45,272 nucleotides of DNA. It comes from Escherichia phage HannyBb. Under the pieces are notes generated by a model that ran no database searches, was not told the DNA's origin, and saw nothing but the letters and a program-made list of their open reading frames with translations. The DNA lies in the sequence record PP925841.1; one strand, given 5' to 3'. Numbering within the stretch: position 1 is the first letter of the stretch; every line of letters begins with the position of its first letter. A program made the position numbers and the translations under genes. Of this stretch, positions 8,279 to 9,006 are shown piece by piece.

Positions 8279-8668
8279 ATGATGTTTCTGAAACAGGGCA
8301 CGTTTAATTATGAAAAACAGTCCGTGGTGCTCAGTGAGCTGTCCGGGCTGCAGAGAATTGAATATCTGGCGTTTGTTCAGCAGCGAACGGCAAAGTTTGA
8401 TGCCGGTGAGGGAGAACTGCCGGAGGCTGAACGACAGATTGCTTTTCTGCGGATGGGGATGGATATCAATGCCTGGCTGGTTTCCCGCTCACTGTGGAAT
8501 GCGGATCAGTCTAAGGATGTAGAGACGCTTTGCGCATCCGTTATTACAACATGGTCGTATGATGCCCTGGGTGCGGGGGCGGAGATGGTTCTGTCGCTGA
8601 GCGGTATGGGGGCCATTGATAATGCCGGGGATGATGAGCATGAGGCGCTGACGCCGGAAAAGTCCTGA
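8279..8668 (+). CDS. G: Tail assembly chaperone G
   Basis: MMFLKQGTFNYEKQSVVLSELSGLQRIEYLAF resembles lambda gpG (MFLK...LSELSALQRIEHLA); sits between V and the tape measure. Confidence 0.85.
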   Translation: MMFLKQGTFNYEKQSVVLSELSGLQRIEYLAFVQQRTAKFDAGEGELPEAERQIAFLRMGMDINAWLVSRSLWNADQSKDVETLCASVITTWSYDALGAGAEMVLSLSGMGAIDNAGDDEHEALTPEKS

Positions 8669-9006
8669 CGCGGGAAATGCAGTTTGTCATGCGGCTTGCC
8701 CGGGAGTTCCGGCGGGCAGACTGGCGGCGGATGCTGTCGGAAATGTCGGCCACTGAGCTTGGTGAGTGGGGCGATTATTTCCGGATGCAGAGCTTCAGTG
8801 ATGTGTGGATGGATGCGCAGTTTGCCTCGCTGAAGGCATTGATCGTGAGAATGGTATCCGGCAGCAGTGATGCTGCGGTGGCTGATTTCAGCCTTTTACC
8901 GGAAGAGAACGGGATACCGGAGCGAACGGACGAAGAACTGATGCATCTTGGGGAAGGTATTTCCGGAGGTGTGCGTTATGGACCAGATAGCCAACCTGGT
9001 CATTGA
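8656..9006 (+). CDS. T: T-frame extension of the G-T tail assembly chaperone (programmed -1 frameshift product)
   Basis: ORF in the -1 frame relative to G, open only from 8644, overlapping the last 8 codons of G and running into the tape-measure start; candidate slip heptamer GGAAAAG at 8656-8662. Confidence 0.6.
   Translation, partial: GKVLTREMQFVMRLAREFRRADWRRMLSEMSATELGEWGDYFRMQSFSDVWMDAQFASLKALIVRMVSGSSDAAVADFSLLPEENGIPERTDEELMHLGEGISGGVRYGPDSQPGH

Follow-up and report, generated by a model that had tools for sequence, protein, structure and literature searches.

Gene content and reading frames at the locus

The window, by which we mean the whole stretch of 45,272 nucleotides of Escherichia phage HannyBb (PP925841.1) that was analyzed, belongs to a lambdoid phage of E. 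coli of the mEp460/cdtI/Tritos type, and over its G-T segment it shares 99.9% identity with the records of Tritos and mEp460_4F5. The genes around this segment follow the canonical order V-G-T-H, in which G and T are flanked by V, the major tail gene, on one side and by H, the tape-measure gene, on the other (Table 1). At the positions equivalent to those of the V and H homologues, a major tail protein is annotated in mEp460, Ayreon, and Tritos, and a tape-measure gene in the same three records and by PGAP. The start of H and the end of T overlap by 29 nt.

A strong terminator-like hairpin with seven G-C pairs separates V from G. The mEp460 and Ayreon records list its counterpart as a rho-independent terminator, those of N15 and HK225 list it as a stem-loop, and the hairpin could reduce transcription of G, T, and H relative to V. 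The mEp460 record places a second "rho-independent terminator" within the T frame, at 8876-8897 (GGCTGAtTTCAGCC then TTTTA), which the consensus terminator scan did not report. Elsewhere in the window, the longest ORF in 3570-5789 encodes 739 aa from a TTG codon, although its real start is probably further in; on reading the sequence, a ClpP/S49-like prohead protease segment and a major-capsid-like C-terminal part appear to be combined there in one frame.

Gene G can be read from an ATG at 8282, the equivalent of the gpG start chosen by PGAP, and another ATG is present at 8279. Translation of 8282-8668 ends in ...EALTPEKS before the stop. The T frame is the G frame minus 1 and is open from 8644 to the TGA at 9004-9006. 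Stops in the -1 frame at 8617, 8620, 8632, 8635, and 8641-8643 bear out a preliminary description of this DNA, according to which T is open only from 8644. Because these stops close the frame on the 5′ side and the G stop, confirmed at 8666-8668, closes it on the 3′ side, any shift that joins the two frames must fall within 8644-8665, and the interval of about 22 nt proposed earlier is an overlap of exactly 22 nt.

Both frames gave matches to protein family profiles (Table 1), and lambda T was aligned by tblastn with 38.6% identity (E 3e-20). On these matches, G and T are true homologues of lambda G and T. One further profile, phrog_32165 (290 positions), matched both frames in order, with its first 119 positions on the G ORF and positions 141-252 on the T frame, which is how a fused GT protein is arranged. 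The putative fusion has 241 aa and a mass of 27.0 kDa.

Table 1. Features of the V-G-T-H segment. Positions are those of the window.
Feature	Position	Strand	Basis or remark
Major tail protein gene, lambda V homologue, with C-terminal Ig-like domain	7478..8221	+	phrog_41, E 3e-124
Intrinsic-terminator-like hairpin between V and G (GCCCCGG TTAT CCGGGGC + T run)	8242..8268	+	terminator scan
Gene G, tail assembly chaperone, 128 aa, 14.1 kDa	8282..8668	+	PF06894 Phage_TAC_2, E 1.8e-39; phrog_42, E 6e-52
Last -1 frame stop (TGA) upstream of T	8641..8643	+	5′ limit for the shift
Candidate slip site G GAA AAG	8656..8662	+	single in-register N NNY YYZ in the overlap
Predicted T-frame part of GT, 114 codons, GTC 8662 to TGA 9004-9006	8662..9006	+	PF06223 Phage_tail_T, E 5e-15; phrog_39, E 7e-43
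G stop codon (TGA)	8666..8668	+	one codon past the heptamer; 3′ limit for the shift
ATG, database start of a separate 109-aa T	8677..8679	+	annotated in mEp460, Tritos, PGAP
Tape-measure protein gene, lambda H homologue	8978..12034	+	phrog_24 tail length tape measure, E 0

G GAA AAG as the candidate slip site

The overlap contains six in-register slots for a slip heptamer, and positions 4-6 carry one and the same base in only one of them, G GAA AAG, in agreement with its earlier designation as the sole candidate. The other five slots are without any repeat, and a shift elsewhere in the overlap was rejected. The zero frame reads the heptamer as GAA (Glu) and AAG (Lys), and the -1 frame reads it as GGA and AAA. 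When compared with the X XXY YYZ rule, bases 4-6 are identical, and the resulting change from AAG to AAA involves two codons that are both read by E. coli tRNA-Lys, whereas bases 1-3 (G G A) are not identical. Re-pairing in the P site is imperfect, as had been pointed out, the change from GAA to GGA affecting the middle codon position, and the slip site belongs to the recognized intermediate "G_GA" P-site class. In a gapless alignment, it occupies the same column as lambda G GGA AAG and differs from it by the one base described previously, base 3 being A instead of G. Translation across the site likewise reproduced the expected junction peptide ...LTPE-K-VLTREMQ.... The designation of the heptamer as non-canonical was justified only in part: it does break X XXY YYZ at base 3, but it is not unusual, being the form of the family majority (44 of 55 junction contexts, see below).

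GGAAAAG occurs 13 times in the window compared to 7.5 times expected. It is not significantly enriched, and its presence alone is weak evidence; by composition, an in-register A AAG would arise within six slots with a chance of about 3%. The significance of the heptamer comes from its conservation at the homologous position and not from its mere presence. Transcriptional slippage was also rejected, as a run of four A is generally too short to support it.

Conservation of the heptamer across G/T junctions

We assembled junctions from 14 phage records and, by searching species-representative bacterial genomes with an alignment of T proteins, from 64 further loci. After removal of duplicates, 55 distinct junction contexts were retained; these are phylogenetically non-independent, and the counts given here are descriptive and not probabilities. 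Comparison with related prophage junctions favored the proposed site. At the aligned, in-register position, GGAAAAG was found in 44 distinct contexts, the lambda-type GGGAAAG in five, GGCAAAA and CCCAAAA in two each, and GGGAAAA and AAAAAAG in one each. The carriers of GGAAAAG include N15, HK225, mEp043, Fels-1, Providencia phage PSTCR8lys, and prophages of about 25 Enterobacterales genera, in which T is only 40-66% identical to that of the window.

A gapless alignment of 30 junctions revealed the heptamer as an invariant island within a variable stretch. Each of the seven bases is 100% conserved among the 44 contexts with GGAAAAG, compared with 36-89% for the neighboring columns. Base 1 is contributed by the third position of CCG, GCG, CTG, TTG, GTG, or ACG and is G in 44/44 (background G3 frequency in these genes, 0.35). 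At base 4, only A is found, so that the codon is GAA and never GAG. Since changes at bases 1 and 4 can be silent in G and neither base is read in T after the slip, their constancy reflects selection on the RNA itself.

In a rough neighbor-joining tree, built as a quick distance tree, GGAAAAG is found across the whole family, with the lambda GGGAAAG/AAAAAAG clade nested inside it, and several isolated switches to other slip heptamers are seen. Given such independent swaps, the variants are functionally interchangeable at one site. The distance from the heptamer to the G stop is zero, one, or five codons in the family members. The 80 loci recovered from viral contigs share at least 98% identity with the window; they show that the phage type is common and are uninformative on conservation, and the diversity in our sample came from bacterial genome contigs.

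Three groups of junctions deserve separate mention. Prophages of Kluyvera and Ewingella (loci L103 801-810 and L105 801-810) have CTG GCA AAA TAG at the G/T junction. Here, tRNA-Ala cannot re-pair with GGC, which leaves an A-site-only slip motif beside a stop codon, and this arrangement departs from the canonical rule more than G GAA AAG does. In a Providencia phage and prophages (L009 604-613, L115 801-810, L149 801-810), the G stop TAG comes immediately after G GAA AAG, and in this subgroup the stop codon may induce a pause or stimulate the shift. Junctions identical to that of lambda (L134, L136-L142, L144-L148, L154-L157) were found on short, low-coverage contigs of species-representative assemblies labeled Kitasatospora, Neobacillus, Oceanobacillus, Leeuwenhoekiella, Chromatium, Paenibacillus, Enterococcus, Pseudoxanthomonas, and others, and these are almost certainly lambda DNA contamination.

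Search for stimulatory elements

No conserved hairpin or pseudoknot of the dnaX, IS3, or IS911 type was found 5-8 nt downstream of the heptamer. The 98 nt past the heptamer (8663-8760) folded no better than shuffled sequences (z -1.07), and RNAalifold applied to 30 junctions gave -1.36 kcal/mol, with four invariant pairs far downstream and no covariation. A scan of Rfam for frameshift elements returned only noise far below the gathering scores.

On the 5′ side, a GAGG at 8642-8645 lies 10 nt from the heptamer, which is the dnaX spacing. Its anti-Shine-Dalgarno duplex of -5.6 kcal/mol is equaled or beaten by 28% of equivalent stretches of the same gene, and a GAGG-type upstream element is absent from N15, HK225, mEp043, and lambda. 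Its spacing makes GAGG a candidate Shine-Dalgarno-like stimulator, but it is not stronger than the gene background and is unconserved. The G-frame peptide encoded before the slip site (8636-8655) follows a loose family pattern, E/D-x-(L/V)-(T/S)-(P/A)-(E/G)-K, which may reflect the chaperone function or a nascent-peptide effect on frameshifting.

Proposed mechanism and alternative readings

The programmed -1 frameshift between G and T put forward in the preliminary description is supported by gene identity, frame architecture, and comparative data, and we consider it very probable that a shift at G GAA AAG yields the 241-aa G-T fusion. By every sequence-level criterion tested, the locus is a member of the lambda G/GT frameshift family: it has the gene order and frames, the homology of G and T, an in-register motif at lambda's position, and a slip motif that is conserved at the nucleotide level beyond the protein code. 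In the literature consulted, we found neither an experiment on a phage with G GAA AAG nor a GT protein reported from one.

From the architecture, the gene identities, and the heptamer conservation observed above, we infer the following course of events. Most ribosomes translating G would terminate at TGA 8666-8668, yielding the 14-kDa chaperone G, and a small fraction would slip back by one base on the heptamer. tRNA-Lys would shift from AAG to AAA and remain fully cognate, while tRNA-Glu would shift from GAA to GGA and keep Watson-Crick pairs at codon positions 1 and 3 around a central G-U. Translation would then continue in the T frame to 9006, giving a 27-kDa fusion with the junction ...ALTPEK/VLTREMQ.... 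By homology with lambda, the G part of this protein would bind the tape-measure protein H, the T part would recruit the major tail protein V, and a low ratio of GT to G would be needed for correct tail assembly. Both the production of GT at a low ratio to G and the need for it in tail assembly are thus predicted here by analogy.

The frameshift would be unneeded if T were made alone, as a 109-aa protein started at ATG 8677 by termination-reinitiation after the G stop. The ATG sits 9 nt past TGA 8666-8668, a geometry that suits translational coupling; the ORF is annotated by mEp460, Tritos, cdtI, and PGAP; and its 109-aa sequence is found on at least 1000 contigs. We nevertheless regard this explanation as very unlikely, as the start is not conserved. 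The ATG is replaced by CTG in close relatives (Fels-1 and a Citrobacter prophage, with 66% identical T) as well as in mEp043 and lambda, and about half of the 44 junctions with GGAAAAG have no Met in the T frame until 25 codons in, after an invariant LAREF motif. Homology detected by tblastn begins 5′ of the Met: the matches to the T of lambda, N15, and Fels-1 are placed from the heptamer, before the ATG, and the lambda and N15 alignments begin at residues 4-6. Residues K2, E7, and F10, counted in the T frame from the heptamer, are invariant in an alignment of nine T sequences, so that the downstream ORF is one without a conserved start whose conserved residues reach the slip site. Moreover, ATG 8677 is without a good Shine-Dalgarno sequence at the proper spacing, and a free T would be without the G domain, which in lambda tethers T to the tape measure (PMC5009743). 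Translation of T from ATG 8677, which the preliminary description had set against its own proposal, is therefore unsupported, and this codon is probably an internal Met codon of GT. Reinitiation at 8677 could take place in this phage, yet the family does not conserve it. Still less credible, and to our mind extremely improbable, is a heptamer present by chance next to a T frame that is a non-functional remnant, with no recoding at all. GGAAAAG is indeed not rare in the window, as its 13 occurrences attest, but the same position is invariant across 44 distinct and divergent junctions, the T frame is intact over 114 codons and matches PF06223 and phrog_39, and the module is kept in 1846/5426 complete E. 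coli genomes. A chance origin is effectively refuted by the conservation data.

If the frameshift is real, it may still be asked which tRNAs move. tRNA-Lys alone might slip from AAG to AAA. It could do so in the A site, or else in the P site before the next codon (TCC, then TGA) is decoded, with tRNA-Glu not meaningfully re-pairing with GGA; the motif would then be the tetramer A AAG. In the work of Sharma et al., A_AA.G ranked first for shifting among A-site motifs in E. coli and gave 5.6% frameshifting in the presence of a pseudoknot (PMC4066793), and the G stop lies 0-1 codons past the heptamer in many members of the family, including the window. The G GCA AAA TAG variants of two prophages also fit slippage of tRNA-Lys alone. 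However, in reporters without a stimulator the same tetramers gave only about 0.15%, hardly more than background (PMC4066793), and no stimulator was found here. Furthermore, base 1 is G in 44/44 contexts although it is drawn from six codons for five amino acids and the background G3 frequency of these amino acids is 0.35-0.56, and base 1 matters only if the P-site tRNA re-pairs with GGA. We consider slippage of tRNA-Lys alone unlikely; given that the invariance of base 1 argues for re-pairing of the P-site tRNA, tandem slippage of both tRNAs is the best-supported model.

Expected efficiency and possible aids to slippage

Frameshifting at lambda G/GT is about 4%, and the ratio of the products matters (PMC3296357; PMC5009743), the lambda-type system needing GT and G at about 1:30 (PMC5009743). 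Using purified E. coli translation, Peng et al. included AUG GAA AAG as a "less slippery" control, and with wild-type EF-G it gave mainly the zero-frame product (PMC6924986). Based on this control and on the weakness of the unstimulated tetramer, efficiency at the site described here is expected to be low, possibly below lambda's roughly 4%. A low efficiency suits a system that needs GT at about 1:30 to G.

The heptamer G GAA AAG is thus dominant and probably ancestral in the family, nearly non-slippery in vitro, and without a detectable stimulator. This combination raises the speculative and rather unlikely prospect that the family uses an aid to slippage that has so far gone undescribed. The central G-U may be tolerated specifically by mnm5s2U-modified tRNA-Glu; the nascent peptide, with its conserved E-x-(L/V)-(T/S)-(P/A)-E-K, may contribute; or the very near G stop codon may do so. 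The 2-thiouridine pathway, which modulates GT frameshifting in lambda, acts on both tRNA-Glu and tRNA-Lys (PMC3296357). As 2-thiouridine is present on each of the two slipping tRNAs (Glu and Lys), the GT:G ratio might track the sulfur and tRNA-thiolation status of the host even more closely than it does in lambda.

Annotation of the module

G-T frameshifting is a textbook example of recoding, and with G GAA AAG it is already known in kind, the heptamer having been annotated since the N15 genome. What is missing is a joined-CDS annotation for a very common module. T is modeled as a separate gene in every public annotation of this phage group, and the 109-aa T falls in a cluster of 1148 members. 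By contrast, the predicted 241/242-aa GT fusion was absent from a collection of 15 billion protein sequences when looked up by exact match, which reflects annotation practice and not biology. The practical value of the present analysis is therefore in annotation, as roughly one in three complete E. coli genomes carries the module. In addition, the sequence that served as the "less slippery" control in vitro is the one that nature uses most often at the G/T slip site, which makes G GAA AAG a handy natural test of the tolerance of P-site mismatches in low-efficiency programmed frameshifting.

Comparison with known frameshift systems

Motifs of the G_GA class (G GAN NNN) have been listed for insect-specific flaviviruses, umbraviruses, dianthoviruses, and mesoniviruses (PMC5009743). 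As proposed for our site, the P-site tRNA in these viruses re-pairs to GGA with a non-Watson-Crick middle position (PMC5009743). The viral signals are nevertheless those of eukaryotic RNA viruses, with another A-site codon and usually strong downstream RNA structures, whereas the signal described here is bacterial, ends in A AAG, and has no detectable conserved structure.

E. coli dnaX and the IS911/IS3 elements, in which A AAA AAG is preceded by a Shine-Dalgarno-like element and followed by a hairpin or pseudoknot, resemble our site in the shift-prone AAG Lys codon and its single E. coli tRNA-Lys (PMC4066793; PMC6924986). They differ in their stimulators, since the phage junction has no conserved hairpin, no conserved or unusually strong Shine-Dalgarno-like element 5-20 nt upstream, and no Rfam match. 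They also differ in efficiency, which reaches 50-80% in these systems and is expected to be a few percent or less here.

The lambda G/GT system with G GGA AAG is much closer. G (PF06894) and T (PF06223) are homologous, the order V-G-T-H and the aligned column of the slip site are the same, and in both phages AAG would give way to AAA on tRNA-Lys, G terminates a short distance past the heptamer, and no conserved start is present in the T frame. In lambda, however, the P-site codon is GGA (Gly) with cognate re-pairing, compared to GAA (Glu) with a central G-U in our model, and the junction reads G-K instead of E-K. The overlap of the two frames is 61 nt in lambda and 22 nt here, the G stop lying five codons past the heptamer in the former and one in the latter. 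The T proteins are 39% identical, and the C-terminal repeat extension of lambda T is missing from the T of the window.

The closest counterparts are genes 14/15 of N15 and G/GT of HK225. In these phages, T is about 41-44% identical to that of the window, base 1 of the heptamer comes from GCG and not from CCG as here, and G extends five codons past the heptamer. The heptamer itself, G GAA AAG, is identical and at the homologous position. HK225 has a gene annotated as "tail assembly protein GT," and the gene note in Ayreon reads "GpGT-like." In the N15 record (AF064539), gene 15 is described as "downstream half of translational frameshift product," and the heptamer is marked as "slippery sequence for -1 translational frameshift."
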